DNA from: an uncultured delta proteobacterium
GTDB lineage: Bacteria; Desulfobacterota; RBG-13-43-22
DNA length: 64,000 nucleotides
Direction: 5' to 3'
Assembly (NCBI GenBank): GCA_963843145.1
Contig: CAWJJC010000010.1
Location: 192,001 to 256,000 of the forward strand
Shown: positions 8,679 through 55,860 of the stretch, piece by piece
Layout: each line of letters starts with the position of its first letter
Numbering within the stretch: the first letter of the stretch is position 1
Position numbers and translations under genes: made by a program
Notes under the pieces: model-generated
Seen by the model: only the letters and a program-made list of their open reading frames with translations
Told to the model about the DNA's origin: nothing
Databases searched by the model: none

Positions 8679-9233
8679 ATGTTTTTAATCACTATTCTGG
8701 TACTGATCGTTGTCCTGGGTTTCCTGGTGATCGGCCCCTACAACGCCCTGGTCCGGGGAAGGAACGAGGTCAAAAACGCCTGGAGTTCGATCGACGTCCA
8801 GCTCAAGCGGCGCTATGATCTGATTCCCAATTTAATAGAAACGGTTAAGGGATATGCGGGCCACGAAAAAAAGACCCTGGAGGCGGTGGTCCAGGCCCGG
8901 CAGCAGGCCGTTAACTTTAGCGGGGGAGTGGAGGAACGGGCCCAGGTCGAAAATGTCCTGACCTCGGCCCTGCGTTCGCTCCTGGCCGTAGCCGAGGCCT
9001 ACCCGGACCTCAAGGCCAATCAAAACTTTCTGGCCCTGCAGGAGGAACTTTCCAACACCGAGAACAAAATCGGCTTCTCGCGACAGTACTATAACGATGC
9101 CGCCATGCGCTACAGGAACCGGGTGGAGATGTTCCCCAGCAATATCGTTGCCAATATTTTTGGTTTTCAGGCCGAGCCATTTTTTCAAGTGGAAGCCACC
9201 GCGGAACGCGTGGCTCCTCAAGTGAAATTTTAG
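8679..9233 (+). CDS. lemA: LemA family protein
   Basis: N-terminal TM; YNALV..RNEVKNAWSSIDVQLKRRYDLIPNL.ETVKGYA.HE; EAYPDLKANQNFL.LQEEL..TENKI...RQYYN; FPSNIVA. Confidence 0.95.
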   Translation: MFLITILVLIVVLGFLVIGPYNALVRGRNEVKNAWSSIDVQLKRRYDLIPNLIETVKGYAGHEKKTLEAVVQARQQAVNFSGGVEERAQVENVLTSALRSLLAVAEAYPDLKANQNFLALQEELSNTENKIGFSRQYYNDAAMRYRNRVEMFPSNIVANIFGFQAEPFFQVEATAERVAPQVKF

Positions 9234-9250: not shown

Positions 9251-9520
9251 ATGGTTGAGACACTTCAGAATATCGGTTGGGCGGTGATTTTTTCAATAAT
9301 GGGCGGCCTGATCGGGATGGCGCTGGTCATCGCCTCATCGCTGATCCTGCCGTCGCTCATCGATCGCCTGACCCCCAACATTGACGAACAGAAGGAAATT
9401 GCCCGCGGCAATACCGCGGTGGGGGAATACTACGGGCGAGTCGTAGGCTCCGCCATCCTGGGGGTGAGCATCGTAGTTGCCGCCGCGGTATTGGGCGGGA
9501 TCCTCGCCGCCTTGCATTAA
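9251..9520 (+). CDS. Small two-TM membrane protein, DUF350-like
   Basis: Two hydrophobic helices flanking IDRLTPNIDEQKEIARGNTAVG, resembling the DUF350 signature. Confidence 0.7.
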   Translation: MVETLQNIGWAVIFSIMGGLIGMALVIASSLILPSLIDRLTPNIDEQKEIARGNTAVGEYYGRVVGSAILGVSIVVAAAVLGGILAALH

Positions 9521-9550
9521 TCCTTTTTTTTGCCTCGACGAAAGGTGCCT

Positions 9551-12500
9551 ATGAAACGGCTTGTCGGACTGACGGCGTTGTTTCTCCATTTGCTCAGTCC
9601 CACCCTGTCCTGGGCCCGAGGCGGGGGCGGCTGCCTGGAAGAGGGCACCCCGATTCGGACCCCAAAGGGGTCGGTGGCCATTGAAAAGCTGGTGGTGGGC
9701 GACCCGGTCTGGAGTCTATCCGCCGGCCAACTGCGGGAGGCCAAAGTCCGGGCGGTTATCCGGGTGCTCCCCCAAGAGATCCTGGAGATATCCGCCAGGG
9801 AGACCCGGTTACGGGTCACCCCCGAACATCCGCTGCTGGTGGCCCCCGGAACGTATCGCCAGGCAGGTTCCCTTTTCCCGGGGGATACGGTTTTCCTTTT
9901 CAGGGCTGGAGCGCTGAAGGCCGAGACGGTCCGGTCCATTGAACACCGGATAGCGAAACGCCCGGCGTATAATCTCTTGGTCAGCCCGGGCGGGACCTTT
10001 CTTTCCGGGGACCTGGTCCTGCACAATAAGGGCTGCTTCCTGCCCGATAGCCCGATCCTGCGGACGGACGGGACGGAGGTGATGATCAGTGCCGTGAAAC
10101 CGGGCGATGCCCTTTGGGCCTTCACGCCGGGCGGACACCTGGTACCCACCCGCACCCGGTCCGTGATTCGCCTCGAAGCGGATGAGTATGTCCTGATGAA
10201 GACCGATCGGGTCACGCTGCGGGTAACCCCGGAGCATCCTTTCTACGTCGGCCGGGGAACCTTCAAGACAGTCGAAGCCCTCAAACCGGGGGATACCGTC
10301 CTGGCTTTTGACGGGAAATGGCTGGCCAAACAGCATATTGTTTCCCTGGAGAGGGTCCGGGAACGGGTTTCGGTCTATAATCTCCAAACCGATCGGCCTC
10401 ATACCTTTTTCGTCAGCGGGGTGGCTGTCCACAATAAGGGCGGAGGATGTTTCCCGGCCGGAACCGGGATTGCCACTCCCCAGGGAGAGCGGTTCATCGA
10501 AGAATTGGCTGCCGGAGACGAAGTCCTTGTCCGTAGACCCGGAAGGGCGGACGGTTCGGAGCCGGGTGAAAACCATCCTGGTGAATAAAAGCCCCCTGCT
10601 GAAAATTAAGACCGCCAGGGGTTTCCTGCTGGCCACCGAGGACCACCCGATACGCGTGGGGAAAGATAGGTTTCGGCCGGCGGGGGATCTCCGCCCGGGA
10701 GAGCAAATCACCCGCTGGAATGAGGGCCGCCTGGCCGCCGACACGGTTCGGAGGATAGACTCCGGGCTTAAGGAAGGACTCGTCTTTAATCTCGAAGTTA
10801 CCGGTCCCCATACCTTCATTGCCGGCGGCGTCGTCGTTCACAATAAGGGGGGTGGTTGCCTTCCGGCGGGAACTCCCATCCAAACCCCTAAGGGTCAAAC
10901 CGCGATTGAAGAGCTGGCCCCAGGAAGCCCGGTACTGTCCGTTGATCCCGAAGGCCGGGTTATCCCTACCCACGTTGAGAAGATTTATAAGACCCGGGCA
11001 CTGCTTATCGAAGTCGTCACGGATGCCGGGTCCTTGCGAACCACTTCCGACCACCCGGTGGGCAGTCCCGGCGGGGCGTTCGTTCCCGCCGGGCGGCTGC
11101 GGCCGGGCCGGGAAGTGCTCTTCTGGAAGGACGGGGTTCTCCGAACGACCCGCGTCAAGCGGATCGTTTGGGAAGAGCACCCGCAACCGGTCTACAACCT
11201 CAGCGTAGGCTGGCCGAACACGTTTCTGGCCTCGGGGTTTCTGGCCCACAACAAGGGAGGGGGAGGATCCAGAAGCTCAAGTTCCGGTTCTTCCCACGGG
11301 AGGAGCGGCGGCAGCACGCTCCACCTGGGAGGATCTGATCCTTTCTTTCTTTTTTATCGTCTTCATTTTTATTCTTGTTCGTGATCGTCTTTGTCGCGAT
11401 CGCTTCCAAAGCTTTCCAAGAAAAAGAGCGAAAATCTCGACTTCGTTTACAGCCGCAATCAGATCGATCCCAAGGCACAAAAGACCGAGAAACTGTTGGC
11501 CTTCCTCAGCCGTCAGGATTCCTCCGTCTCCCCGGAAACGCTGCGCGATCAGGCGAAGGCCACGTTCCTCAAACTGCAGGAATGCTGGGGTAAACGGGAA
11601 TACGGGCCCATGGGGGCGCTGCTGGTACCGGACCTCTATACCCAGCACACGGCCCAGCTCCAGGGCTTGGCCCGGAACCACGAGATCAATCGGATCGACG
11701 ATCTGACAGTGGAGCGGATCGATCTGGTGAATGTCCGCTATACCGAAAAGGGGAATCAACGGGAGTTCACCGCTCTGATTACCGCTTCGGCCCGGGATTA
11801 TTATCTGGACGACCGCTCGGGAAAATTCCTCCGGGGCGATCGGACCCCGGCGCGTTTTCAGGAGTTCTGGACCTTCCAGTTGATGAACGGACGTTGGCTG
11901 CTGCGGGAGATCGAGCAGGCGGGGGAAGCGGATATCCTCAAGGATGACAACTTCGCCGAGATGCTGACCGAAGAAACGCTGAAGGGGATTTACGGAGAAG
12001 CATCCGTCCCCACAGGGGAAGCGGGGCCCTGGCTGGAGAAAGAGGTGGAACAGAAGGCCGGTCGCACCGACCGCTTGTTGAATTTTCTATCCCAGACCGA
12101 CAAGCTCTGGAATCGAAACCAGATGCTCGAACGGGCTCGTCAGGTTTTCCTGGATGTCTACCTGGCCCGGGAAACAGGCGATCCGGCCCGGGTCGCGGCC
12201 GACGACCTCTTTCCGAAGGTGGCCGAGGATTTGAAGACCCAGGTGGCTTACTGGAAGAATGAGGGCGTCGTCGTCGAATACCGGAATCTTTGTGTGCGCA
12301 AGGTGGAGCTGCTCCTGGTTCGTAATTCGGGGACAACACCCGGGATGAATATACGGTGCGGGTCAGCGCGCATGCCCAGCGGATGATCCGCAAAGGTGAC
12401 CAGTCCTTGAGCGCCCAGGACTACGTCACGCCCTTTGAAGAGTACTGGACTTTCGGCCGCCTGGAGGGACAGTGGAAACTGAAGGAAGTATTGCCTCCGG

Positions 12501-12595
12501 GCCAGGGGAAAAAGGCTGTTGGCCTGGAAAACGTGGACGAAGACAGCAACCCCGGGCAGCTCCAATGGTATTACCGGCAGCCCCGCGTCCGTTAG
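9551..12595 (+). CDS. Exported poly-Hint protein: signal peptide + 4 tandem Hint/BIL domains + Gly/Ser linker + TM + two Tim44-like domains (frameshifts at ~10526, ~11315-11410, ~12330)
   Basis: Joined from ORFs 9530-10588, 10308-11384, 11391-12386 and 12356-12595. Four C...TxxHP...HN units; Tim44-like segments ending FQEFWTFQ...WLLREIEQ and FEEYWTFG...WKLKEV. Confidence 0.85.
9632..10027 (+). other. Hint domain 1 (132 aa)
   Basis: CLEEGTPIRTPKG...VTPEHPL...AYNLLV...VLHN, followed by KG. Confidence 0.9.
10034..10435 (+). other. Hint domain 2 (134 aa)
   Basis: CFLPDSPILRTDG...VTPEHPF...VYNLQT...HTFF...AVHN, followed by KGGG. Confidence 0.9.
10448..10844 (+). other. Hint domain 3 (132 aa after removing 1 extra base at ~10526)
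   Basis: CFPAGTGIATPQG...ATEDHPI...VFNLEV...HTFI...VVHN, followed by KGGG. Confidence 0.88.
10857..11252 (+). other. Hint domain 4 (132 aa)
   Basis: CLPAGTPIQTPKG...TTSDHPV...VYNLSV...NTFL...LAHN, followed by KGGGGS. Confidence 0.9.
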
Positions 12596-12707
12596 GGTGG
12601 TAGGCACATGGAATAAATGGCGTTTCGCCCTTTCGAACGGGTACCTCCTCCAAAAGGGCGAAGTGATTAGTTATAAACGGTCTCCAAAGAGTACCCACAT
12701 CGTATCG

Positions 12708-21842: not shown

Positions 21843-23556
21843 TTATTTCACCGGGGAGGCATCCCACTCCCCTTCCCGTCGCAATTGTTCCACGATGGGC
21901 TGGGCCAGCTTCTGCAGGGCCAGCTTGTCCACTTTGGTGCTGCGGGTGATTGGGAATTCCCGGCCGGCGGGCCAGAGCTCCACATGCTGGGGCCGCTTGT
22001 AGGAGGCGATTTCCCGGCAGTGGGCCAGCACTTCCTCGGCGGTCAGCGCCGCCCCCGGGAGGAGGCGCACAAAGGCAAAGATCCCCTCGTCAAAAAGCCG
22101 ATGTTCCAGACCCACCACTTCGGCCACTTCCACCCCGGGCAGCCGGCCGATGTGGGCTTCGACCTCATCCGGAAAAACGTTATAACCTTTTTGTTTGATC
22201 ACGAACTTCCGCCTCCCGGCCAGAAAGAGGGCCCGGTAGGTTCCCAGGTTTTTGAAGGAGCCGAGGTCCCCGGTATAGAGGATCCCTTCTCTGGAAATGG
22301 TTTTGGCCGTTTCCTGAGGCTGGTTGTAGTAGCCGAGGAACACCAGGGGTGGATGGTAGCAGATCTCCCCGATCTCCCCTTCAGGGAGTTCCTCCCCGGC
22401 GCTGCCGTCCGGGTTCATGGGCCTGCGGACCGTAACGGCCGCCAGGTCGGGGAAGGCCCGCCCCACCTGGCCGACCATTTCCTCCGGCGGAATATCCTTC
22501 GGGGTAAAGGTGGCGAAGCCGGCATTTTCGGTCATGCCGATACCGGTGCCGAAATGGGGAGCCATGCCGGAGAGTTTTTTCAGGAAGGCCAGATCCACCG
22601 CCGAACCGGCATAGGCCACGAAGCGCAGGCTGCTCAGATCGAGACCGGGATAGTCGGGATGATTCCAGAGCATCCGGTACTGGGTGGGGATCTGCCCGAG
22701 GACATTGACCCGGTGCTTGGGAATGGCCTCCAGGGTCATCTTGACATCAAAGATGCGCAACAGGACGGTCGTGCCCCCCAGGGCCATGGTGGTCATGAAA
22801 CATTCGGTCAGACAGCCCACGTGGCTGGGAGGCAGGTTGATCAGGATACGCAGGTCGCTGCCCAGTCCCACGTCCAATCCCCGGGCCAGGATCTCGTTCT
22901 GGGTGATGATGTTCTCGTGGCAGAGCAGGGCCGGTTTGGGATCGCCGGTTGTCCCGGTGGTATAGATGATCAAGGCCGGGGTCCGGGGTTTGACCTGTCG
23001 ATAAGCCTTTTCCAGCCTCCGGGTGAAGAGGTCCTTGATTTTCAAAGCCAGGAGCTTCTTCTTGTCCATCATCCCGGTGATCGACCAGGCCCCGTCCAGG
23101 AGTTCCCCGGGCTTCGGGTCGGCCGTAAACTGCACCAGAAATTCGACGGAAGGGACAGTGCGCTTTTACCGCTTGGCCGACCTGGCGGAAATCTCGGACC
23201 GGGGTCTGTCCCAGGAAGAAAAAGACCTTGGGGTTGATTTTGTTCAGGTCCCGGACGACTTCTTCATCCTTGAGGCGCAGGTCCAGCGGGGAAACAATGG
23301 CTCCGATCTTAAAACAGGCGTACATCAGCATCAGGTGTTCCGGAATCAAAACCAGTTGGGTGGCCACGCGGTCTCCCTCCCGGACACCCATATCCAGCAG
23401 ACGCAGGGCGAAGAAGTCGATCAGGGAAAGAAACCGTTTATAGGATACGGTTTTGCCGTCCTCGTGCTGGATCATGGCCGGTTTATCCGGAAAGGTTTTC
23501 GCCCAGTGCTCGATATAGGAATTGACCAAGGGTAATCTAACAAAAGGGGTGGTCAT
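21843..23556 (-). CDS. AMP-binding acyl-CoA synthetase (frameshift ~23150)
   Basis: IYTTGTTGDPKPA; GMTE; YTGDLG; GRRKFVIKQKGYNVFPDEVE; joins ORFs 22747-23556 and 21843-23135. Confidence 0.85.
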
Positions 23557-23582
23557 GTTTCCTCCTTATATTAACGGTCACG

Positions 23583-24949: not shown

Positions 24950-25738
24950 TCAGGATCGGCCTTCCTCGGCCAGGCAGGCGGCGCCAAGGGCGGCGGTGAG
25001 CCGAGGGGTCTCCGGAACCCGCACCTCCAAACCCAGGGCCTCGCTGACGACCCGGACCAGGCCGGTGTCTTCGGCCCCGCCGCCAGTGAGAACCACCTCC
25101 GGCTCCATTTTCACCCTTTTGGCCAGCAGGGCCACTTTGGCGGCCATGGCGCGATGCACGCCGGCCAGCAGGTCTTCCGGACGGGCGCCTTCAGCCAATC
25201 GCGAGACGGTCTCCGATTCGGCAAAGACGGCGCAGTTGGTGGAAAATTCCACCGGCCTTTCCGATTTCAGGGAAAGTGGGCCGATGGCTTCCCATTCGAT
25301 CTGCAGGATACGGGCTATGATCTTCAGGAAGCGGCCGGAGCCGGCGGCGCATTTTTCGCTGATCAGGAAATCGACCACCCGGCCCTCGTTGTTCAGCTTG
25401 GCGGCTTTGGTGAACTGCCCGCCGATATCGATCACGGTGCGGGCCGCTGGGAAGTGGAAACGGCAGCCCCTGGCCTGGCAGGATATGTCGGACACCGTCC
25501 GGGCCGAAAAGGGGGCGCTTTCCGCTCCGACACCGGTGACCACAATGCCGGCGAGTTGTTCCCGGTTCAGCCCGGCCCGGGCCAAGGCCGCCTCCAACAC
25601 GCCTCGGGCCGTTTCCCGGTAGCGCCCCCCGGAAGGACACATTTCGGAAGCCAGGATTTTTTGACCGCTGAGCAGCACCGCCTTGATAAAGGCCGAACCG
25701 ATATCCACTCCGGCAAAACAGGCGGGCGCTTTGCTCAT
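24950..25738 (-). CDS. CoA-substrate enzyme activase (BadF/BadG/BcrA/BcrD/HgdC ATPase family)
   Basis: GVDIGS; IDIGGQ; EKCAAGSGRFL; NCAVFAESE; TGGGA. Confidence 0.9.
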   Translation of the reverse strand: MSKAPACFAGVDIGSAFIKAVLLSGQKILASEMCPSGGRYRETARGVLEAALARAGLNREQLAGIVVTGVGAESAPFSARTVSDISCQARGCRFHFPAARTVIDIGGQFTKAAKLNNEGRVVDFLISEKCAAGSGRFLKIIARILQIEWEAIGPLSLKSERPVEFSTNCAVFAESETVSRLAEGARPEDLLAGVHRAMAAKVALLAKRVKMEPEVVLTGGGAEDTGLVRVVSEALGLEVRVPETPRLTAALGAACLAEEGRS

Positions 25739-26565
25739 TGGAAGAAGGTCACCCCTTCCAGTTTTCTGGCCCGGTTCGGGATCACCCCGCGGGCGGTGAA
25801 GTCCATTCCCAAGAGGGCCGCCCCCAACGCACCGGTGAGGAGGGGTTCATCGGGCACCAGCACCGGGAAACCGACCTGGTCTCCCACGGCCTGGATCAAC
25901 CCGCTGTTCATGGCCCCGCCGCCGGTGACTGCCACGTCCTTTTGGATCCCCAGAGCGCGGACCAGATTGACCACCCGCCCGGCAATGGCCGCGTGCAACC
26001 CGGCGATGATTTCCGGGATACCCGCCCCCTCGGCCAGCCGGGAAGTCACCTCGTGTTCGGCAAAGACGGTGCAGGTATTGGAAATAGGGACGGCTTCCTT
26101 GGCCATCAGCGAAAGGCCGCCCATTTCGGCCAGGGGGATCCCCAGGGTATCGGCGATCACCTCCAGGAAACGGCCGGTACCGGCGGCGCACTTATCGTTC
26201 ATGACAAAGTTGATGACCTTGCCGCCGGCGTCCAGCTTGATACCCTTGGAGTCCTGCCCGCCGATATCGATAACCGTCCGGACCGTGGGAAAGAGGGCCC
26301 GAATGCCCCGGGCGTGGCAGGTGATCTCCGTAATCTGCTTGTCGGCGAAGGGGACGTTGATCCGTCCGTACCCGGTGGCCACGATAAAGTCCAGGCCCTC
26401 CAGGGCCAGGCCCGTTTTGTCCAGGATCCCGGCCAGCACTTGCAGGGCTAAATGGCGGTGTTCGGCGCCGGTAGGGCCGATGATTGATCCCAGAACTTTT
26501 CCTTCCCCGTCGGTGATAACCGCCTTGGTCATGGTGGAGCCGATGTCAATGCCGGCATAGGGCAT
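25735..26565 (-). CDS. CoA-substrate enzyme activase (BadF/BadG/BcrA/BcrD/HgdC ATPase family)
   Basis: GIDIGSTMTK; ATGYGR; TEITCHA; IDIGGQDSK; MNDKCAAGTGRFLE; TCTVFAE. Confidence 0.92.
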   Translation of the reverse strand: MPYAGIDIGSTMTKAVITDGEGKVLGSIIGPTGAEHRHLALQVLAGILDKTGLALEGLDFIVATGYGRINVPFADKQITEITCHARGIRALFPTVRTVIDIGGQDSKGIKLDAGGKVINFVMNDKCAAGTGRFLEVIADTLGIPLAEMGGLSLMAKEAVPISNTCTVFAEHEVTSRLAEGAGIPEIIAGLHAAIAGRVVNLVRALGIQKDVAVTGGGAMNSGLIQAVGDQVGFPVLVPDEPLLTGALGAALLGMDFTARGVIPNRARKLEGVTFFQ

Positions 26566-26613
26566 AATTATCTTTTGTATACCGTCTCTTTATTGTATTT
26601 ACCGGTAATCTCT

Positions 26614-26698
26614 CGTCATCCCCGAATGCCTTTATCGGGGATCCATTGTTCCTTGAGAAAGGCCTGGATTCCCGCTCAGAAGCGCTGCGGAAATGACG
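26614..26698. repeat. CGTC REP-like doublet, copy 2
   Basis: Reverse complement of 12708-12792. Confidence 0.8.
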
Positions 26699-26853
26699 CG
26701 CATTAATTCCGAGTAGTTTTTGTTTTGGTCATTTGGATTTGGGACTTTCGTGCTTGTTTCGAATTTCGTGCTTCGGATTTCGGATTTAAAGATCGCGCCG
26801 GTTCAATACTATTATCGTACCTGGACCCTTTGCCCCTTTCTCCAACCTTCCAT

Positions 26854-28167
26854 TTACGCCCGCCCCGCCAGGGCCTCGATAAAGGCCCCGATCTGGGCCT
26901 TCCAGTGGGCCTCGGAGTAATCCCGGAGATCGACCATGTCGGAGACCAACTGCATCATGGGGATATCCGTGAATTGACCCAGGAGGTTTTTGATATGCAC
27001 CTGGCCGACCGTGGTCGCCCGGCAGGAACGGCAGGCGTGGAAGACCACCCCGTCGATCCGGTAATCGTTGATCATCCCCAGCAGCTTTTCCACGATGGGA
27101 TGGCCGCTGTGGGCCCGGGCCTGGTCGTGACGCTGCGTGAAGCGCAGAAAGGTCCGCCAGGCCAGGTATTCGACCGGGTCTTTGATCCGGGCCGGCACTT
27201 CCACGGGGTCGTAGCCCCGGTAAACGTTCTCAATTACGAATACGGCGCCGAAGCTTTCGAAGTAATTAAAGATCCAGAGGGTGTGCCAGGGGGGCAAGCC
27301 ACCGCCGTAGAGCAGGCGGTACTTTTCCTCGGGGATGACGCCGATCTTGTTTTCCGCCTTGGCCTTGACCTCATCGTAGAGCCCCTGGTAGAAATCCACC
27401 GCCACCTGGGTGCCGGAGAAATAATGGCCGGCCACCATGACGCTGAAGTGGTCCTGGGTCGGCATGGGGCTGGGGACGGCGACGCGCAGTCGGTCGATCT
27501 CGTACCAGAGCCGCCAGGACTCATCCCCCAGCCGGATGGTCTCCCAGAGCCTCTCTGGATCAAGCTTCTGGCCGGTCTGCTGCTCGAGAAACCCGATCAG
27601 ACCCTGAAACTGCTCTTTTTGATAGTGGATATAGTAGTCCCGCACCCGGTCCAGGTCCGCGTAAACCGGCGGCCCAACCACATCGATATTATAGGTAGGC
27701 ACGTCCAGGTAGCGCCCCGCCGCCTGAAACCATTTGAAGCGGGGGTCGCAGACGGCGCTGCTGCCCAGCATCAGGTCTGGGACGGGCATCCCGCCGTCCG
27801 GGGCGTTTTCCGGCAGGCCGCCCAGCTCTTTTCGCAGGCTGTCGAAGCCCAGGCCGATCCGGGCATAGCTGCAAAGCACCTGGGAGTAGCCGTCCGCTTC
27901 CGCCTGGAGGAGAAAGCGGTCCATGTCGCGCTTGGCGGCGCACAAGCCGGCATAGTTTTCCGTGGGCAGAGGCACGATATCCATGGCCCGCAGGATTTCG
28001 TCATACTGGGAAGCCACCATAAAATAGGCCACTTTCTGGCCCCGGGCCTTGGCTTCGTGGGCGTTCCGGTAGATGCTCTTCACCAGGGCCCGCACCTGCC
28101 GGGCCGTTTCCGTGCCTTTGATCGCCGTGGTTTTTTGCTTTCCCTTCTCTTCCCTAACCATAACCAT
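26854..28167 (-). CDS. 2-hydroxyacyl-CoA dehydratase / class I benzoyl-CoA reductase family subunit (HGD-D)
   Basis: PTENYAGLC; LCSYAR; GGMPVPD; CDPRFKWF; IDGVVFHACRSCR; SDMVD.R. Confidence 0.88.
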   Translation of the reverse strand: MVMVREEKGKQKTTAIKGTETARQVRALVKSIYRNAHEAKARGQKVAYFMVASQYDEILRAMDIVPLPTENYAGLCAAKRDMDRFLLQAEADGYSQVLCSYARIGLGFDSLRKELGGLPENAPDGGMPVPDLMLGSSAVCDPRFKWFQAAGRYLDVPTYNIDVVGPPVYADLDRVRDYYIHYQKEQFQGLIGFLEQQTGQKLDPERLWETIRLGDESWRLWYEIDRLRVAVPSPMPTQDHFSVMVAGHYFSGTQVAVDFYQGLYDEVKAKAENKIGVIPEEKYRLLYGGGLPPWHTLWIFNYFESFGAVFVIENVYRGYDPVEVPARIKDPVEYLAWRTFLRFTQRHDQARAHSGHPIVEKLLGMINDYRIDGVVFHACRSCRATTVGQVHIKNLLGQFTDIPMMQLVSDMVDLRDYSEAHWKAQIGAFIEALAGRA

Positions 28168-28172
28168 TCCCT

Positions 28173-29312
28173 TTAAGTCAGCATTTCCAGAAAGGCCTGG
28201 ACCCGGGTACGGAGCTGGCCGCTGGCGGAGGTGGAGTAATCGTCCTCGATCATCAGCACCGGAAGCGGCATTCCCTCCAAGTATTCCCGCAAATCAGGCC
28301 CTTCCAGTTCACAGGTATCGCAGTAGCGAACGATCGTGCCGATGACCCCGTCGACCTTCCATTCCCTGACGAACCGGCCGATGTGCCCGAAGCGGTTTTC
28401 CAGATCCTCCTCCCGGGTCCCGGTCCGGGCCTCAAAGCTGCGGGGGCAGCGGGTTTGCAGGTATCGCCGGGCCAGGCCCTCCAGGGGATCGTCGGTTTCC
28501 GGCACGTCGTCCCAGAAGAAGCGGGTGCCGGTGCAGAGATCGTCCATCACCAGGGAGGCCCCGCTCTCCTCCACCAGTTGAATAAAGGCCGCGTCGTCTA
28601 TCTCGCTGCCCCAGATGAAGAGGCGGGGAAGTTTCGGGGTCTGGGGCCGAGGGCGCGCCTGAATCTCGGCGACGGCTTCCTGGACGAGTTTCAGGTGCTC
28701 CGCCGTCGGCAGGCCCAGGCCGGCCACCAGGATCCGGGTGACCTCGGTTCCTGAAACCAGCGGCGGGTCGGCCTTTCGCAGGTCATACAGCTCCCGAAGG
28801 ACGGCCCGCCGCCGGTTGGACAAGCGGACGACTTCCCGCAGCCGGTCCGGCTCCAGTTTCCGCCCCGACCACTGCTCCAGGCTGTGGATTAAGTACTCCA
28901 GCTCCCGGCGATAGAAAGTGTCGGAGTCTGGTCCCCGCATATGAGGCACGTTGAGGAGATGGTTGAAGGGAGACGGTTTATTGTGACGCCAGATATGGAA
29001 CAGGCGCTCCACCGTATCGCAGCTATGGGGGGCCACGAACCCGTCCAAGAAATCATATTCCCCTTTCAGGGCCAGGTTGAAACAGCTTCGGGCAAAGGGG
29101 CAGGCCATGGGCTCGATGTAGGCATCCGCCTGATCGATGGGCTCACCGGGGCGGCCCTGGATGCGAAAGGGAAGCATCTCGAAAGCGGTGATGATCTCCT
29201 CGGGCACGAAGCAGCAAAGATAGCCGATGACCTTTTGGCCCGCCTCGTGCCATTCCCGGGCGCGCCGGCTTCTATCCTGATAGTAGATCTCTATCTGTTC
29301 GAAAGCGTTCAT
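28173..29312 (-). CDS. 2-hydroxyacyl-CoA dehydratase / class I benzoyl-CoA reductase family subunit (HGD-D)
   Basis: GYLCCFVPEEII; ACPFARSC; HSCD; DDLCTGTR; DGVI....YCD; GQLRTRVQAFLEML. Confidence 0.88.
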   Translation of the reverse strand: MNAFEQIEIYYQDRSRRAREWHEAGQKVIGYLCCFVPEEIITAFEMLPFRIQGRPGEPIDQADAYIEPMACPFARSCFNLALKGEYDFLDGFVAPHSCDTVERLFHIWRHNKPSPFNHLLNVPHMRGPDSDTFYRRELEYLIHSLEQWSGRKLEPDRLREVVRLSNRRRAVLRELYDLRKADPPLVSGTEVTRILVAGLGLPTAEHLKLVQEAVAEIQARPRPQTPKLPRLFIWGSEIDDAAFIQLVEESGASLVMDDLCTGTRFFWDDVPETDDPLEGLARRYLQTRCPRSFEARTGTREEDLENRFGHIGRFVREWKVDGVIGTIVRYCDTCELEGPDLREYLEGMPLPVLMIEDDYSTSASGQLRTRVQAFLEMLT

Positions 29313-29365
29313 GGGATGTGTTCCTTAATACGAAAATAGAACCCGGCGCCACTCGGGCATTCATC

Positions 29366-30310: not shown

Positions 30311-30359
30311 ATTTATTATGTTGTTCCTATTTTGAGATCATTTATGATCCCTACGGTTT

Positions 30360-32302
30360 TTACCACCCGCCGCCGCCTCCACCGCCTCCTCCCCCCCGGA
30401 CGACCCACCGCCTCCGGAACCCGACGAAGCCGAAGAGCTGGCCACGGCGCTCGATAGAGATTCCCCCAAGGTGGAGGCCAAGGCCCCCGCGCTGAAGGCG
30501 CTCACTGAACGACTGGAATACCAGTCCGGGGATCGGCCTTCCGCCGCCGCGGAGGAGAGGATCTCCGAAAATTGTTCGGCCCAGCGTTGCTCCACCCCCA
30601 GGGCCAGGGCGTAAGGTAAAAATTTTTCGAAAAGTTCCGGGGTCTTTTCCGGGGAATTCAGGTAATTGAGCCGGTCTTTTTCGGCGGCCTCCAGAAAGAC
30701 CCGAAATCCCTCGATCTCGTCCAGCCGCATCCGTCCCAGGGAGGTTACGGCCTTCAAAAGCTGGTAGAAGACCAAAGTGATGCCCACCGAAACGACATAA
30801 AGAACGGCCAGGGGGACCGAAGTGGCTTGAAAGGCCAGGACATACAGTCCCAGGACTTCCCCTCCGACGAAGGGCAGGGCAAACAGCGTCAGGAAAACTG
30901 TTCCGATTAATTTTCCGATTTTTCCGGGACCTCTGACCACCTCCAGCCAGGATTTGGCCAACGTCACCATTAGGAGGGCCACCCCGATACTCCAGACAGT
31001 CAGCCAGATGGAAATAAAAGAGAACAGGGGAAGACTGCCCTGATCCAGGGCCTCACGAATTCCGGAGAGGACCACCACCCCCAGTGTCAGGAGCAACCCG
31101 ATGCCAAAGTACCAGCGATTATGAACGAAATAGCTCTTTTCATACCCGTATTCCAGGTTTCGCTTCAGGGCGGAAACGGCACTTTGGATAATGGTCCGAT
31201 TGGCCGGAATAAAAACCACTTCCTGCCGTTGATTGAAGAGGGCCCCGTAGACCTTCTCTTCGTCTGGGGACGCCGGGGCCTTCTTCTCTCCATCCCGCTT
31301 CCGGGCCGAATATTGGCCGAACGTTTCTTTGATCGTCAGGTACCCCTTGACCGCCAGGTTAATGAGCGCGGCCGTAAAGGCCGGATCGTCATACCTCTGG
31401 TTCCAGACATAGCGCAGGGCCGCCGGACTCATTCCACCGGGCGGGGCATAGCGGGTGACAATGATGCCCTTTTCCGGGTCTTTCCCCACCCGAACCCAGA
31501 CGATAAGATAATAAACCAGGATGGCCAGGATCCCGGCCAGACCGAAGACGAAACCCCGATTATCGGAGGTGATGGCCCAAACCCCGGTCGGCTCCGTTGC
31601 CGTCACATAGCCTTTGGGCCAGGAAACGGCAATGGTCAGGCCCTCATTCAAGGCCAGGGGCCTGGTGGTAAAAAAGCGCACGGTGCCGGCCGACGGATCA
31701 ACTTCTTTTTCAAAATCCAGGCCCCGGGCACCCTTCGGGCCGGTGTAACCGGCCGTGGATATGATTTCCCCCCCGCTCCCCTCCGGCAGATGCACCGTGG
31801 CCGAGACCTGATCGATGGGGAATTTCCAGTCGTTACCGGTAACGTTCCAGTAAAGCTCATCAAACTCCGGGAATAAGCCGAGCTGCCGATCGGTCTCATA
31901 AACAAAGGTATAGGTATATTCCCCGGGGGGCAGAAGTACCTCTTTTCGGCCGAAATAGACCCGCTTCCCTATGGAAATTCCCTCGAAATGAAACGACTCG
32001 GGCTCTCCATCCCGAAGGAGCTGCCGGACCTCAAAACCCACCCGCCGAATCAGACCGTATTTCCCGCGATAGCGGGTAGGAAAATCACGGTAGATCCCGC
32101 GCTTGATCTGATTGTTTTCGGCCCGGACCCTGATGGTTTCGGTGACGGTCAGGGAGGCGTCGGAGTGAATCCTGATGTCACTCTGAAAGGAAAGGATTTT
32201 TTCTTCAGCCCGCGCCTGGACGGCCATGATCAGGAAGAAGCAATTCAACCCCAGCAGCAGGACGAGACCCGGCCCGTTTTTCCCCTTCATCCGGTTAATC
32301 AT
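30360..32302 (-). CDS. DUF2207 family membrane protein (true GGGGGGGGGW* end restored by correcting a C-run indel at ~30391-30397)
   Basis: EKILSFQSDI...VTETI...IKRGIYRDFP; DELYWNVTG..W.FPI; FEKFLPYALALGV...WA; Gly-rich tail. Confidence 0.85.
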
Positions 32303-33302
32303 AATACCCCTTTAGCCAAAGAATAAAAAAGGCAACCGATATTAGAGCGTGGGAGAGGATGAAAACCAGTATCCCGAGGGATAGCCTTCCCGAAGAATCC
32401 TTTTCGATAACCGCAGCCAACGCTTCACCTGTTCCCGGCCAGAGCTGTACCGCATCGGAGACTTTCCCGGGGTTGGGGATCAGTCCGCCGCGGGACGGCG
32501 AGTAGATCCCGAAGGCCGTCACCTCCGCCCCGACCGGCACCACCCGCTCCGAACATTGCCGGCCTTCGAACCGGAAGTCTTCCGGGTCCAGGTCCGTTCC
32601 CCGACGGATATCGGCTCGCGCCTCCCCGTCGTCATCCACCGACCGCTCCAGGAGTTGGCCCAACCCTTTTTTAATATCCGCCTTCTTAATGGTTTCAAAG
32701 GCCGTGTTTTTCAAATAGGCCCTGATCCTTTTCCGACCCCCCTCCCCGACCACGGCCTCGTCAAACCGCTCCAGATCCGGGAATCCGAGCAGAAGCAGTT
32801 CTCCCCTGGCCGTTCGGATGACCGCGGGCGTCAAAGCCCATCCCCAGGCATCGGACCCGGTCGTTCGGTTATCCCGCCCTATCTCGGCCACATCGTATTC
32901 ATAGGCCACGCAGGAAACACCCTGAAAGGGAGAGATCAGGGCCATGCCCAGCGGATGGATGGCGCCGCCGGACGCCTCAAACCGCCCGTCTTTCTTGGGC
33001 CTCCCCGCCCAATCACGGCGGATCGCCGCCCCCAATTTGCGGGAACGAAACAGACCCAGGAGACCCGCCACCAGGGCGCCGGTCCCTAGGGCGGTGAATA
33101 AAGCAAAGAAAAAGGGGGCCGCCGGATCAGGGATCAGCCGTAGGAAGAGGAGAACATAAAGGGCATAGATGAGCAAGAAACCCAGCAGGGGATAAAAACA
33201 GCCGCTTCTGAAAATGGTTTTTTTGGAAACCTTCGCTGAACCTATTTTAACCAAATCGAACCACATTGCGGCCGGCAGCTTTGGCTTGGTAAAGGGCCTC
33301 AT
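32295..33302 (-). CDS. Hypothetical membrane protein
   Basis: Two N-terminal TMs, SPFQGVSCVAYEY, ER....G.EV..FG, C-terminal TM; overlaps the DUF2207 start. Confidence 0.65.
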   Translation of the reverse strand: MRPFTKPKLPAAMWFDLVKIGSAKVSKKTIFRSGCFYPLLGFLLIYALYVLLFLRLIPDPAAPFFFALFTALGTGALVAGLLGLFRSRKLGAAIRRDWAGRPKKDGRFEASGGAIHPLGMALISPFQGVSCVAYEYDVAEIGRDNRTTGSDAWGWALTPAVIRTARGELLLLGFPDLERFDEAVVGEGGRKRIRAYLKNTAFETIKKADIKKGLGQLLERSVDDDGEARADIRRGTDLDPEDFRFEGRQCSERVVPVGAEVTAFGIYSPSRGGLIPNPGKVSDAVQLWPGTGEALAAVIEKDSSGRLSLGILVFILSHALISVAFFILWLKGYYD

Positions 33303-46135: not shown

Positions 46136-47608
46136 ATGGAAGTATTAAAGAAAAATATTCGGAAAAAAGCCATGGTGGCGATCCTGATCACCTGCGCGGT
46201 GACCGCTCTGGCCTCGGGAATTGCCCTCAACGCGGTTTGGCAAATAAATCAGGTCGTTACCCACGTCGTACCCCAGGCCGAAGCCATGCTTATCGGCGTC
46301 AAAGACCTTTATGGTCAGGGGCTCCAACAGGGTCAGGCCATCCGTAACATCATCCTGGACCCCGGCAACGCTACCGCCTATAAAAACCTGGAAAAGGCGG
46401 CGGAAGACTTCAATGCCGCCGGTCTGCGTTTAGCCGAGGTTACCAAGTCGGCGGGGGAGAACGGCTTCACCGCCAAAGTCCTGGAAATAGCCGATCTGGA
46501 GCGGGAAGATCTCAAGGTCCTTCGGGAAATTAGCGGGGTGGTCAAGGCCGGCCAGAAGGATCAGGCCGTAGAGATACTGAATAGCCGGGAAACACCGCTG
46601 TGGCGGAAAAATAAAAAGATCATTCTCGACCTCAACAGTCAAATGGCGGAATACCGGAAACGGGTCTATGCCCAAACGGAGACCAAAGCCTATCGGCAGA
46701 TGGTGGCTGTAGCCCTGGGTACGGCCCTGCCCATTCTTTTCGCCCTGGGACTGGGGCTGGCACTGCAGGCGGCCCTGCGGCGGATCGACCACATCGGGAA
46801 GAACATCCGGGAAGAAATTCAATCGGTATCCGCGGTCTCCGGACAAGTTTCCACCGCCAGCCAGTCCCTGGCGGAGGATGCCTCCCGCCAGGCCGCCGGC
46901 ATAGAGGAGACTTCCGCGGCTATCGAGGAGATGGCGGCGACGACCAGGCAGAACGCCGAAAACGCCGATCAAGCCAATAACTTCATGATCGAAGCCGGAC
47001 ACGTGTTGAAAGAGGCCAACCGCTCCATGAAGGGACTTATCCTGTCGATGGACCAGATTTCCTCCGCCAGTGAGGATACGGGAAAAATAGTAAAAACAAT
47101 CGATGGCATCGCCTTCCAGACCAACCTGCTGGCCCTCAACGCCGCCGTGGAGGCGGCCCGGGCTGGAGAGGCCGGGGCCGGCTTTGCGGTGGTCGCCAAC
47201 GAGGTAAGGAATCTGGCCAGGCGCGCAGCCGAGGCGGCCCAAAACACCTCCAGCCTGATTGAGGAAACCGTCCGCAAGGTCAGGGAGGGATCGGAACTGG
47301 TGACCCAGACCAACGAGGTTTTCAGAAAAGTGGGAGAGCGAGCGAAGCAGGGCGGAATGCTGGTGGCCGGAATCGCTGCGGCCTCGAATGAACAGTCCCG
47401 GGCCATCGACCAGATCCAGCGGGCGGTGGCCGAGATGGACCGCTTAACGCAGAAAAATGCGGCCAGCGCGGAAGAGTCATCTTCCGCCTCGGAGGATTTG
47501 TACGACCGGTCCGAGATGATGAGCAATCAAGTAAAAGAACTGGCGGACGTTATCGGTGGCAACGGCCGCCCCCTTATGATCGACCCGGAGGCGACGGTTT
47601 CTTGCTGA
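46136..47608 (+). CDS. Methyl-accepting chemotaxis protein
   Basis: TM-periplasmic helical sensor-TM; [37 protein letters not shown]. Confidence 0.92.
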
Positions 47609-49848
47609 AAGCGGCGATAAAGGGATTGTTCACAAAAGTACTTTGAGCTTTCGGGTCCCGGCCCGGTCGCCCTTCACCCTTCTTCTCTTTTCCTTTGGTC
47701 TTCAAACCCGAGGAGGAAGATCCGCTCTTCAGGGAAAGGGAAATCCGCTTCCGGCTCAGGTCCACTTCCAGCACCCGGACCGTCACCTTTTGTTGTAAGG
47801 TGACCACCTCGGCCGGGTTTTTCACAAAACGGTCAGCCAGTTCGCTCACATGGACCAGGCCGTCTTGATGGACGCCAATGTCCACGAAGGCCCCGAAGGC
47901 AGTAATGTTGGTCACTACGCCGGGAAGCTTCATTCCCGGGCCGGACATCCTCGATCTTCTCCACCCCCTCGGCAAAATGGAAGGCCTCGAACTGCTCCCG
48001 GGGATCGCGACCGGGTTTGGAGAGTTCGACCAGAATATCCTCAAGGGTGGGCAGGCCCGCCTTCTCCGAGACGTAGCGGCTAAGATCGATTCGTCCACGG
48101 AGGAGCTCATCGCGGAGCAGATCGCTCATCGAACAGCCCAGGTCCCGGGCCATGGCATCGACCAGGGGATAGCTCTCCGGATGGACGGCGCTTCCGTCCA
48201 GGGGGTTCTCGCCGTCGCGGATGCGCAGAAAGCCGGCGGCCTGCTCAAAGGCCTTGGGGCCCAGCCGGGGCACCTGTTTCAACGCCTCCCGGGACCGGAA
48301 GGGGCCGTTCGTATTCCGGTACTCCACGATCCCTTTAGCCAGTTGAGGTCCCAATCCGGAGACGTAGGTCAGCAGTTGTTTGCTGGCCGTGTTGACCTCC
48401 ACGCCTACCCGGTTGACGCAGCTCACCACCACGTCATCCAGGCTGCGCTTCAAGGCGGTCGGATCCACGTCATGCTGGTACTGGCCGACCCCGATCGACT
48501 TGGGGTCGATTTTGACCAGTTCGGCCAGAGGATCCATCAGCCTCCGCCCGATGGAAACGCTCCCCCGGACGGTAACATCCTGATCGGGAAATTCCTCCCG
48601 GGCGACTTCAGAGGCCGAGTAGATGGAGGCGCCGCTCTCATTGACCATGATCACCTGGATGCCCGGGGGCAAATCAAGACCGCGGATGAACGTTTCGGTC
48701 TCCCGGCCGGCCGTGCCGTTGCCGATGGCGATGGCCTCAATGCCGAAACGGTCGCACCATTCCCGAATGTGGGTGCCGGCCTGGACGGTGCTTTTCTCGG
48801 ACAACAGAAAAATAGTTTCATGATGGACCAGTTTCCCCTGGGGGTCGAGGCAGATCACCTTGCATCCGGTCCGGAATCCGGGATCGATGGCCAGGACCAT
48901 TTTCCGGCCCAAAGGCGGGGTCAGGAGGAGCTGGCGGAGGTTCTCGGCAAAAACCCGGATGGCTTCCTGGTCGGCCTTTTTTTTCGTCTCCAGGCGGATT
49001 TCGGTCTCCATGGAGGAAGAAAGGAGCCGCTTATATCCATCCTGCGCAGCCAGTTGAACCTGCCGGGAGGCCGGCCCTTCCCCTTTGATGAAAAGATGTT
49101 CCAGGATCTCCAAAGCCCCCTCTTCCGGAGGGATGACCCGCAGGGTAAGAAAACCCTCCTTTTCCCCCCGACGCAGGGCCAGGATCCGGTGGGAGGGCGC
49201 GCTGGTCACGGGTTCCTCCCAGTCAAAATAATCCCGGTATTTGATCCCCGCCTCTTCCTGGCCCGTGATGATTTTCGATCGGAAAACCGCCTGCGAGGCG
49301 AAATAATCCCGCATCCGGGCCCGGGCGGTCTCATCCTCGCTGATCCATTCGGCGATAATGTCGCGGGCCCCGGCCAGGGCTTCTTCCGCTGATGCCACCC
49401 CTTTTTCCGAATCGATGTAGGCCGAAGCCTCGGTTTCGGGGTCCAGCTCGCCCTGATCGAAAAGTCCCCGGGCCAGCGGTTCCAGCCCTTTTTCCCTGGC
49501 GATGGTGGCCCGGGTCCGGCGTTTGGGCCGGAAGGGCAGATAAATATCTTCCAGGACGGTCAGGGTCTCGGCGGCCTGGATTTTCTCCTTCAAGGCCTCC
49601 GTGAGCTGTCCTCTTTCCTCCATGGCTTTGAGAATGGACTCCCGGCGCTGATCTAACTCCAGGAGTTGCCCCATCCGGTCCCGAACCGCGGTGACCGCCA
49701 CCTCGTCCAGGGACCCGGTGGCCTCCTTCCGGTAGCGGGAGATAAAGGGCACCGTGGCCCCTCCGTCCAGAAGGTCGGCCGTGGCCTCTACCTGTCCGGG
49801 TGCCAGGCCCAGTTCTTGGGCAATTTTTGAACCATGGGTTTTATTCAT
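47574..49848 (-). CDS. tex: Tex RNA-binding transcription accessory protein (frameshift ~47938 before the S1 domain)
   Basis: [20 protein letters not shown]; [10 protein letters not shown]; [22 protein letters not shown]; S1 domain [20 protein letters not shown] in the next frame. Confidence 0.92.
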
Positions 49849-49961
49849 CAGGGTTTTCTTTTGGGCTGCTTATCCGCCTTGTTTTTTGTTTTTTGTCTCT
49901 GTTTTTCGGTGTTCTGTTTCTGCCCCTTTTCCTTGTTTTTCTTGCCGCCCTTGTCTCCCAT
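49848..49961 (-). CDS. 37-aa Lys/Gln-rich small protein translationally coupled to tex (absent from ORF track)
   Basis: RBS GGAAAGGAG; MGDKGGKKNKEKGQKQNTEKQRQKTKNKADKQPKRKP; TGA overlaps the tex ATG (TGATG). Confidence 0.7.
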   Translation of the reverse strand: MGDKGGKKNKEKGQKQNTEKQRQKTKNKADKQPKRKP

Positions 49962-53580: not shown

Positions 53581-53732
53581 GATTAGATTTTTACAGCCAA
53601 AAAAGATTTCAAATTTTTTTGGCTAGATTTGATCTAATTTTGAAGAAACCGGGAAACGGATCTTGTATGTCTATTTTTTACCCGACTAAAAAATGGCCTT
53701 GACTGTTTTGGAATAAGGTCTAAAATAGCCAT

Positions 53733-54857
53733 ATGCGTTATATCGCACCTTATGTGCTGAAAGATCTTCAGTCCAAAATGGTCTTTGTCGGCGGTCCCCG
53801 CCAGGTGGGCAAGACCACCATGGCCAAGGAGGTTTTAAACGGGTTTCCCAGCGGACGATATTTCAACTGGGATTTTGACGACGACCGTCAGGATATTCTA
53901 AAAAAACGGTGGGCGGCGGAGAACACCCTGTTGATCTTCGACGAACTGCACAAGTTCCCCCGCTGGAAAAACTGGATCAAAGGCCTTTATGACGTATCCC
54001 ATTCAAAGCATTCTTTCCTGGTCACCGGGTCCGCCCGCCTCGACCTCTACCGGCGGGGAGGGGATTCCCTTTTAGGCCGTTATCACTATTGGCGCCTGCA
54101 TCCCTTCAGCCTCGATGAAATACCCAAGGGCCTGACCGCCCGAGAAACCTTCCAACGGTTGATGTCCGTAGGCGGTTTCCCGGAACCTTTTCTGGATAAC
54201 GATGAACGGGCGGCCCGCCGCTGGCGGCGCGAGCGCTTCGACCGGGTCCTGCGGGAGGATATCCGGGACCTGTCTCCCATCCGGAACATCCAGTTGCTGA
54301 GTCTTTTCCTCGACCTCCTCCGCCAGCGGGTGGGCGGCCTGGTCACCTTGTCCAACCTGGCGGCCGACATCCAGGTGTCACCCAAAACCGCCGCCTCCTG
54401 GTTGGAGGTGCTGGAACGGATGTACCTGGTGTTTGCCGTCCGACCCTTCACCCGGTCTTTGCCCCGGGCCGTCCTCAAACCCCCCAAGGTCTATTTTTTC
54501 GATACCGGCGACCCGCTGGTGGATGAAGGGGAGCGTTTTGAAAACCTGGTGGCGGCCTCCCTGCTGAAAAGACTGCAATTCCTGGAGGACCGAGACGGGT
54601 ACCGCTACGAATTGCGTTATATCCGGGATAAGGAAGGCCGGGAAGTGGATTTTGTTATCCTGAAGGATAATCGTATCGAGGAACTGATCGAAGTAAAATG
54701 GGCCGACGAAAACATTTCCAGGTCCCTCCTCTATTATGCGGAGAAGCTTCGTCCGCACAAAGCCACCCAGGTGGTAGCCCGTTTAAAAAGGCCCTACGAC
54801 CAGGGAAAAATTCAAGTTCGGGACCCTTTCTCTTATTTCCATTCCGATCTTTTTTAA
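53733..54857 (+). CDS. AAA_14 ATPase with DUF4143 C-terminal domain
   Basis: GPRQVGKTT; FDELHK; VTGSA; GGFPEP; KPPKVYFFDTG; EVDFV...IEVK. Confidence 0.9.
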   Translation: MRYIAPYVLKDLQSKMVFVGGPRQVGKTTMAKEVLNGFPSGRYFNWDFDDDRQDILKKRWAAENTLLIFDELHKFPRWKNWIKGLYDVSHSKHSFLVTGSARLDLYRRGGDSLLGRYHYWRLHPFSLDEIPKGLTARETFQRLMSVGGFPEPFLDNDERAARRWRRERFDRVLREDIRDLSPIRNIQLLSLFLDLLRQRVGGLVTLSNLAADIQVSPKTAASWLEVLERMYLVFAVRPFTRSLPRAVLKPPKVYFFDTGDPLVDEGERFENLVAASLLKRLQFLEDRDGYRYELRYIRDKEGREVDFVILKDNRIEELIEVKWADENISRSLLYYAEKLRPHKATQVVARLKRPYDQGKIQVRDPFSYFHSDLF

Positions 54858-55763: not shown

Positions 55764-55860
55764 GGTGCTCGGCCTCGGTTAAAATCGGGGTAGCCTACAC
55801 AAATGCGCTAAAATAGGTCAAGTCATATTATCTTTGTAAAATGGAAGAGGATATCCCGAA

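Follow-up and report, generated by a model that had tools for sequence, protein, structure and literature searches.

Four intein-like Hint domains in tandem form the putatively self-excising N-terminal half of a Tim44-like membrane protein in an uncultured delta proteobacterium

Why should one exported protein carry four intein-like Hint domains in a row, all with their catalytic residues in place and separated by a few residues only? The question is raised by a gene in a stretch of 64,000 nucleotides of an uncultured delta proteobacterium of the Desulfobacterota (GenBank assembly GCA_963843145.1, contig CAWJJC010000010.1, positions 192,001 to 256,000 of the forward strand), which is called here the window and is numbered from its first letter. 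A first-pass annotation, made from the letters alone, described positions 9551..11252 as an exported protein consisting of such an array. The array was found where it had been placed, but the protein is more than an array, as the gene runs on to 12595 through a transmembrane helix and two Tim44-like domains and has a DUF350 partner. The reading that we favour, and consider reasonably probable, is that 9551-11252 encodes the exported N-terminal half of a single inner-membrane protein whose C-terminal half is Tim44-like, and that this exported half is a self-excising array kept by the host in the periplasm.

The four Hint domains follow directly on a signal-like segment and the residues RGGGG, and their coordinates proved correct to the base in the open reading frame (ORF) table and a three-frame translation. 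The limits of the single domains were set from the translation, the length of Hint3 counting only when one extra base at 10525/10526 is skipped. All domains are 132-134 amino acids long, and the four cysteines of the region are each the first residue of a Hint. The comparison with Hint-type models that the first-pass annotation had proposed gave five Pfam models above their cut-offs, namely Hint_2, PT-HINT, Hint, Intein_splicing and Vint. ORF 9530-10588 scored 74.6 bits with Hint_2 (cut-off 28.4), 58.9 with PT-HINT (27.7), 55.2 with Hint (29.7) and 46.4 with Intein_splicing (35.8), and ORF 10308-11384 scored 41.1 bits with Intein_splicing and 39.4 with PT-HINT. The copies had been called clearly diverged from each other, and indeed Hint2 and Hint4 are 33% and 36% identical to Hint1; the orthologous Hint1 domains of relatives are 56-77% identical to it.

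The family was followed in two samples. For the protein sample a word-indexed search was made with Hint1-3 and 8000 candidates were scored; 952 proteins fell at E<=1e-3, and Hints were counted in the best 120 of these. The locus sample took a single genome from each species; of its 446 candidate stretches 390 encoded a relative, and 75 loci were kept, the taxa being taken from the record titles. With the family profile, four Hints were counted in 93 of the best 120 proteins, three in 23, five in 2 and six in 2; P0096 is a four-Hint protein, though it was counted as six split matches. The 75 loci gave two Hints in 33 cases, three in 28, four in 8, one in 5 (mostly cut or split) and none in a single cut copy, so that copy number across the samples ranges from one to six. 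The four-Hint architecture, which had not been recognised at first, is real and no paper describing it was found, although two or three Hints are commonest among the loci and back-to-back arrays also occur in other metagenomic proteins.

The junctions of the array are strictly conserved. In the best 120 proteins the Gly preceding the domain (Gly-1), Cys1, the terminal His-Asn, and the Lys and Gly that follow the domain (Lys+1, Gly+2) are each present in 456 of 456 complete Hints, and block B retains its Thr in 454 and its His in 455 of them. The same five elements occur in all 186 complete Hints of the 75 loci, that is in 642/642 domains over both sets, among which there was no homologue with decayed catalytic residues, the finding named in the first-pass annotation as fatal to its claim. 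A prefix x-R-G-G-G-G stands before the first Hint in 70/72 loci and in 114/115 proteins. The pieces between the Hints are 2-8 residues long and consist in every case of K and 1-7 G; solely K/R and Gly are found between and before the Hints.

When the Hints were typed with four type profiles, a fixed order became apparent. Among the best 120 proteins it was 1-2-3-4 in 75, 1-2-3 in 22, 1-2-1-2 in 6 and 1-2-1-2-1-2 in 2, with a few others, and among 74 loci it was 1-2 (31), 1-2-4 (17), 1-2-3 (10), 1-2-3-4 (6) and 1-2-1-2 (2). Nine loci do not start with 1-2; eight of these are cut or split copies, and the ninth, L078, has a lone type-2 Hint right after ...SWARAGGG and is the sole array with a complete N-terminus that does not open with type 1. 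From the type orders among proteins and loci, the ancient core is a 1-2 pair joined by KG alone, to which the lineage of the window has added types 3 and 4. Copy number is still changing by tandem duplication, because some proteins (P0001 and P0013) hold nearly identical repeated Hint copies. The ratio of non-synonymous to synonymous substitution rates (dN/dS, Nei-Gojobori method, eight genome pairs) was 0.10-0.37 for the Hints (26 valid comparisons, two saturated), 0.10-0.24 for Hint2 and 0.06-0.20 for the Tim44 half. Taken together, the comparisons favour selection over decay, and the suggestion that the catalytic residues are retained under selection is supported, with the order fixed across phyla.

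As regards kinship, a profile built from 24 Hints matched, among solved structures, first the BIL (bacterial intein-like) domain 2LWY of Clostridium thermocellum, over its full length and with E 2.9e-20, then inteins, then Tetrahymena BIL2 (4.9e-9) and Hedgehog (2.8e-7). At the block F position the array Hints and 2LWY have Asn, in contrast to the Asp of the RadA intein. The AlphaFold2 model of Hint1 had a predicted local distance difference test (pLDDT) value of 96.3, and in Foldseek its template modelling (TM) scores were 0.86 with 2LWY, 0.87 with the Mtu RecA mini-intein, 0.85 with BIL2 and 0.88 with Hedgehog; the Pfam matches, the model and TM scores of 0.8-0.88 place the domains in the HINT superfamily. 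A model of RGGGG-Hint1-KG-Hint2-KGG was confident as a whole (mean pLDDT 90.7, predicted TM score, pTM, 0.85), and this agrees with domains 1 and 2 being packed in a set arrangement.

The proximity to A-type BIL domains claimed in the first-pass annotation is supported by these comparisons. All four window domains have a Cys1 nucleophile, Thr-x-x-His in block B, a His-Asn end and no Cys/Ser/Thr at +1, and they share with 2LWY the small Hint fold without endonuclease, the Asn of block F and an exported bacterial host. The C. thermocellum BIL reportedly has Ala at +1 (Dassa 2004). The C-terminal His-Asn is part of the definition of type A BILs in PMC4031507. The passages on BILs in PMC7765530 and PMC5874633 locate these domains in variable regions of non-conserved bacterial proteins; unlike them, the array Hints occupy a fixed site in a conserved membrane protein family of many phyla, in one to six copies of fixed type order, with Gly-1, Lys+1 and Gly+2 invariant and nothing but Lys/Arg and Gly in between.

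The other known systems are more distant in one respect or another. Class 1 mini-inteins (Mtu RecA, PDB 3IFJ) resemble the Hints in fold, Cys1, block B His and His-Asn. Unlike them, the Hints have Lys instead of a nucleophile at +1, which makes the standard branched intermediate impossible, they are too short for a homing endonuclease and have no insert, and they sit in a Gly-rich exported tail and not in the conserved site of a cytoplasmic enzyme. The PT-HINT domains of polymorphic toxins (PF07591) share the Pfam model, and some family members are called polymorphic toxin-type HINT by NCBI. Unlike such toxins, the array protein continues into a transmembrane helix and two Tim44-like domains, has neither toxin tip nor variable C-terminus nor immunity gene, and is followed by genes on the other strand. 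The absence of endonuclease, of a +1 Cys/Ser/Thr and of a toxin after the Hints agrees with the first description. Hedgehog-type Hog domains differ in that each array Hint ends in His-Asn and continues with Lys-Gly. The ciliate BUBL proteins (BIL2, PDB 6Y75/6TMM) have several BILs per polypeptide, as has the array, and in section 2.4 of PMC8616854 a lysine amino group takes over the thioester and forms an isopeptide bond. Their BILs are separated by whole ubiquitin-like cargo domains, whereas the array has its Lys-Gly spacers and no ubiquitin-like domain; moreover, BUBL proteins are eukaryotic and cytoplasmic, the array is bacterial and exported, and the likeness in sequence is weak (E 4.9e-9).

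The second half of the protein resembles the bacterial Tim44-like membrane proteins (PF04280), with two PF04280 domains behind a membrane anchor, and nearly all of the best 120 proteins also contain PF04280. The curated Tim44/TimA adaptor model of NCBIfam gave 33.8 bits against a cut-off of 80, which leaves the protein outside that family, and NCBIfam holds no fitting family model for the whole protein. The automatic names of the members reflect one half or the other: 'Hint domain-containing protein', 'TIM44-like domain-containing protein', 'polymorphic toxin-type HINT domain-containing protein' and, at JGI, 'predicted lipid-binding transport protein (Tim44 family)'. By hydropathy, intact relatives have no hydrophobic segments other than the signal-like segment and the helix that follows the linker; this helix is preceded by acidic residues and followed by K/R. 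Given these two segments and this charge pattern, the Hints should be periplasmic and, by the positive-inside rule, the Tim44-like domains should lie in the cytoplasm.

A second, distant Tim44-like gene lies outside the window (L036, G000:C10:57529-57972; 28% identical, open frame of about 330 amino acids). Its equivalents, 26-32% identical and also of about 330 amino acids, are present in most relatives, including those without the Hint-bearing gene; no further kind of Tim44-like gene was found in the relatives, and none of the Hint matches in the relatives' genomes falls at their places.

In this assembly about five single-base frame changes interrupt the gene; they are located at 10525/10526 in Hint3, near 11310, 11378 and 11412 in the linker and transmembrane part, and near 12327-12335 in a G run. 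Seven orthologues (G001, G007, G009, G011, G013, G015 and G017) are uninterrupted, each forming one open frame of 888-1069 amino acids with 3 or 4 Hints, the linker, the transmembrane helix and two Tim44-like domains. Because of these single frames of the same architecture, both programmed frameshifting and an assembly chimera were rejected, the latter having been named at the outset as a possible objection. The frame changes were checked on Logan short-read contigs of related soil strains, of which the best run contains 0.20 of the sampled words; contig cover is absent at 11065-11397 and 12508-12700, and no contig spans the gene. A contig of run X4 is one base shorter at 10525 and so regains the ...EVLSVDPEGR... 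of the orthologues, and contigs of runs X1 and X4 have one more base at 12327/12328, which brings the second Tim44-like domain back into frame. Of the indels, whose correction by reads was envisaged in the first-pass annotation, these two could be compared with related strains, and the stretch 11300-11425 is uncovered.

Single-base indels seem to be frequent in this assembly, because at least two other genes of the window are also split over overlapping frames. An AMP-binding enzyme has profile positions 2-100 in 22750-23565(-) and positions 153-384 with the C-terminal domain in 21846-23165(-), and for Tex the body is encoded by 47836-49869(-), whereas a different frame, 47577-48125(-), encodes the S1 domain. 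Since the orthologues are single-frame, close strains are without two of the indels and other window genes are split alike, we regard it as highly probable that the frame changes are assembly indels and not decay; the copy is probably intact in the organism and mis-assembled. That it is instead a real pseudogene, with true mutations at these places, is improbable. About five frame changes in 3 kb, three of them inside some 110 bases, would suit a pseudogene; none of the contigs is from the same strain, 11065-11397 is without cover, and gene loss does happen, because 10 of 20 other genomes of the same family are without the gene. Against decay, the copy has no stop or other damage apart from the frame changes, and its dN/dS against G001 and G007 is 0.09-0.34, with purifying selection in each piece. 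Both sites checked on contigs lie in short base runs and are in frame in the related strains, two unrelated window genes are broken in a like manner, and Hints on two ORFs, or on an ORF without the Tim44 half, occur in 6/75 related loci.

If the protein works as its junctions suggest, it would be exported by the Sec route, and each Hint would then fold and process itself; self-processing of the array Hints is likely as judged from their sequence. A thioester would arise where the invariant Gly|Cys1 bond undergoes an N-S acyl shift, and cyclisation of the terminal Asn would cut the chain at the invariant Asn|Lys bond. For type A BILs, PMC4031507 describes these events, namely an N-terminal thioester, cleavage of the C-terminus by Asn cyclisation, and a freed amino group that may attack the thioester and ligate the flanks. 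In the array the freed Lys-Gly amino group, as proposed for type A BILs, or else water, would attack the upstream thioester. In this way the array would remove itself module by module, and the Tim44-like membrane protein would be left with a short tail, rich in Gly and Lys, in the periplasm. The end product would be either tiny peptides and a KGGGGS... tail or a re-joined RGGGG-KG-KGGG-KGGG-KGGGGS... tail, and it would be so limited because only Lys/Arg and Gly stand between the Hints.

Several points weigh against this reading. Re-joining of the flanks would be the weakest step of the mechanism, since, as far as the pertinent parts of the reviews go (PMC7664689, PMC4031507, PMC7765530), BIL products are mostly cleaved and not spliced. 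No experiment on any member of the family was found in the literature; we infer both the export and the self-processing of the protein, as well as what becomes of the flanks. The retention of catalytic residues is equally expected of a harmless parasitic intein. Complete Hint-less relatives exist (P0140, P0156, P0157, P0217, P0227 and P0234), which start directly with a membrane helix, so that the Tim44-like part can work without the array; the idea that such relatives resemble the array protein minus its modules, with a signal peptide and a Gly-rich tail, was not confirmed. Most of the matches of 'near' length are fragments of Hint-bearing proteins. For the window copy in particular, the contigs come from related strains (90-99% alike) and not from the same strain, and three of the approximately five frame changes (11300-11425) lie under no read or contig.

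It is tempting to speculate about a bolder version of the reaction, to which we give a low though appreciable probability. The side-chain amine of Lys+1 could attack the Gly-Cys thioester, after which Asn cyclisation would free the Hint and leave a Gly-(epsilon)Lys isopeptide bond between the flanks. The scheme with the alpha-amine does not require Lys+1 to be invariant. This isopeptide version is the boldest that the data allow, because Lys+1 is invariant and because BIL2 of Tetrahymena, in section 2.4 of PMC8616854, uses a lysine side chain as acceptor and forms an isopeptide bond to lysines of other proteins.

The same report on BIL2 is an argument for an alternative in which the thioester is handed over in trans. 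Each Hint would then transfer the piece that precedes it to some other component of the envelope, for instance peptidoglycan, a lipid or a partner protein, in the manner of Hedgehog with cholesterol or of the BUBL BIL2, and the array would be a multi-shot conjugation device and not a self-removing one. The fold similarity to BIL2 and Hedgehog would agree with such a role, as would the stretch before each Hint, which ends in Gly-Gly or Lys-Gly. We hold it to be unlikely: the upstream piece is merely RGGGG and the pieces between the Hints are so short that there is no cargo to attach, the invariant His-Asn and Lys+1 would be needless for an N-terminal transfer of the Hedgehog type, and neither a sterol-recognition-like region nor a ubiquitin-like domain was seen in the Pfam results or the translation.

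Less probable still is that the Hints are selfish or leftover mini-inteins for which a Gly-rich tail offered a tolerant site, where tandem duplication raised their number. Such elements would explain the variation from one to six copies, the near-identical repeats of P0001 and P0013 and the existence of Hint-less relatives, and any tolerated intein keeps its catalytic residues, as a failed exit harms the host protein. Against this, Lys+1, Gly+2 and Gly-1 are invariant in the 642 domains, purifying selection acts over whole domains, and the type order with its 1-2 start is the same across phyla. There is, moreover, neither a homing endonuclease nor a Cys/Ser/Thr at +1 in these domains, and the signal peptide with RGGGG occurs only together with Hints. 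The Tim44 half was found at E<=1e-40 in 17 of 401 genomes of the phylum, with a patchy distribution; these carriers have long frames of 645-1069 amino acids, consistent with Hints, save for the split or cut copies of G000, G003 and G241, and no Hint-less orthologue was present among them.

Weakest of all is the idea that the Hints are a non-catalytic ectodomain that stays attached as a periplasmic spacer or binding module: the confident Hint1-Hint2 model and the conservation over whole domains would suit a structural role, but the invariant residues are those of catalysis and of the junctions and do not form a surface patch, and linkers of Lys and Gly alone make little sense in a rigid spacer.

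The genes upstream give some indication of the context in which the protein works. The immediate upstream neighbour is a DUF350 ORF in 70 of the 75 loci, and four of the remaining five are without any upstream sequence; a LemA ORF is found upstream in 45/75 loci, mostly in Desulfobacterota-type records as judged by eye from their titles. In the window the LemA, DUF350 and Hint genes are on one strand with 18-31 bases between neighbours, and the downstream neighbours, on the opposite strand, are unrelated (Big_1, beta-helix, ABC transporter). The best explanation is that the gene product is made together with the DUF350 membrane protein and, in this lineage, with LemA. A complex prediction for the DUF350 protein and the linker, transmembrane and Tim44 half gave a score of 0.00 and a mark of 0.32, values that speak neither for nor against such a complex. 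A fusion of DUF350 to Tim44 was considered for Hint-less relatives with several N-terminal helices and was rejected, as Pfam gave only Tim44 in 9/9 of those scanned.

The 75 loci belong to Desulfobacterota-type records, Verrucomicrobiota, Planctomycetota, Lentisphaerae, Acidobacteriota, Sumerlaeota, Myxococcota (Anaeromyxobacteraceae), Anaerolineales, Methylacidiphilaceae and Legionella. The three Legionella loci (L067, L072 and L075), from two cultured species and one metagenome-assembled genome, carry a two-Hint gene in which the RGGGG|C...HN|KG junctions are kept and which has a DUF350 gene upstream. Closer to the window, an orthologue was present in 11 of 41 related genomes, G000 included.

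An exhaustive profile search yielded 50,555 proteins at E<=1e-3 and 253 at E<=1e-30. Of 145 new representatives in the top 150, 52 had the Tim44 half and 93 did not, many of the latter being short fragments in which the G|C...HN|KG junctions recur. Tandem Hints are a wider theme, and an equally undescribed one, because other metagenomic proteins also carry them back to back. Two to five back-to-back Hints, often with Lys+1, were seen in P0320, P0318, P0346, P0324, P0372 and P0367, and such arrays often terminate surface proteins of the subtilase, PKD or Ig-repeat type. P0320 is a subtilase-PKD protein with four PT-HINT domains back to back, P0318 a surface protein of 3399 amino acids that has three Hints, P0346 a two-Hint protein of the Big_9/cadherin kind, and P0367 a distant three-Hint protein with a Tim44 match of 28.5 bits, just under the cut-off of 29.6. 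The literature searched, from which most subscription journals were outside reach, held no paper linking Hint or BIL with Tim44 or DUF350, nor the phrase 'tandem Hint'.

As to the purpose of BILs, the reviews go no further than the activity of cleavage and a loosely defined part in the variability of proteins. The family described here is a clean case, in that its intein-like modules stand in tandem and always at one site of a conserved membrane protein of many phyla that is not a toxin, with junction residues including Lys at +1 that are invariant in 642 domains, and no possible cargo in between; it is therefore a good test case for the role of such modules outside the cytoplasm. Should the Hints process themselves as we infer, this would be protein self-excision in the periplasm maintained by the host. 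Should the lysine join the flanks, a new splicing chemistry would be at hand, possibly useful as a ligase-free route to isopeptide bonds; the product, built up by repetition at each Hint, would be a short, branched, protease-resistant Gly/Lys tail made outside the cytoplasm without ligase or ATP, and the reaction a bacterial, intramolecular counterpart of that of BUBL and a new class of protein splicing. The locus also ties a Tim44-like protein, DUF350 and LemA into one envelope module open to genetic study.

Table 1. Coordinates of the Hint-Tim44 gene, its parts and its upstream neighbours in the window
Feature	Position	Strand	Remarks
LemA-family gene	8679..9233	+	Pfam LemA E 1.4e-60; heads the apparent operon
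Small DUF350 membrane protein (89 aa) with two hydrophobic segments	9251..9520	+	Pfam DUF350 27.8 bits, cut-off 26
Whole Hint-Tim44 gene	9551-12595	+	about 1010 codons; ATG 9551, stop 12593-12595
Signal-peptide-like N-terminus, 22 aa (MKR, hydrophobic core, ...SWA)	9551..9616	+	translation
RGGGG preceding Hint1	9617..9631	+	translation
Hint1, 132 aa, type 1	9632..10027	+	followed by KG linker 10028-10033
Hint2, 134 aa, type 2, most conserved	10034..10435	+	followed by KGGG 10436-10447
Hint3, 132 aa, frame broken by extra base in 'cc' 10525/10526	10448..10844	+	followed by KGGG 10845-10856
Hint4, 132 aa	10857..11252	+	followed by KGGGGS...
Lys, Gly/Ser-rich linker and single transmembrane helix	11253..11429	+	three-frame translation against intact orthologues; T-rich stretch
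Two Tim44-like domains	11430..12595	+	Pfam Tim44 E 3e-21, 76.5 bits, cut-off 29.6, two stretches

Some further features of the window may be mentioned. Two copies of an AAA_14 and DUF4143 ATPase gene lie at 53724-54854 (+) and 55840-57036 (+), the second with an in-frame stop between 56424 and 56428. The gene at 58598-60115 (+) encodes an N-terminal TIR domain followed by beta-helix/NosD repeats and is situated at 58-60 kb, where the G+C content of the window is at its minimum (0.44); the gene may be foreign and of a defence type. The region 24953-29324 (-) holds two BcrAD/BadFG-type ATPases and two HGD-D proteins (2-hydroxyacyl-CoA dehydratase D-component) beside a MaoC dehydratase and an enoyl-CoA hydratase, and looks like an anaerobic acyl-CoA or aromatic pathway. 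Finally, a DUF2207 membrane protein with both Pfam halves is encoded at 30341-32311 (-), 21 kb from the LemA gene; members of the DUF2207 family are often found near LemA genes.

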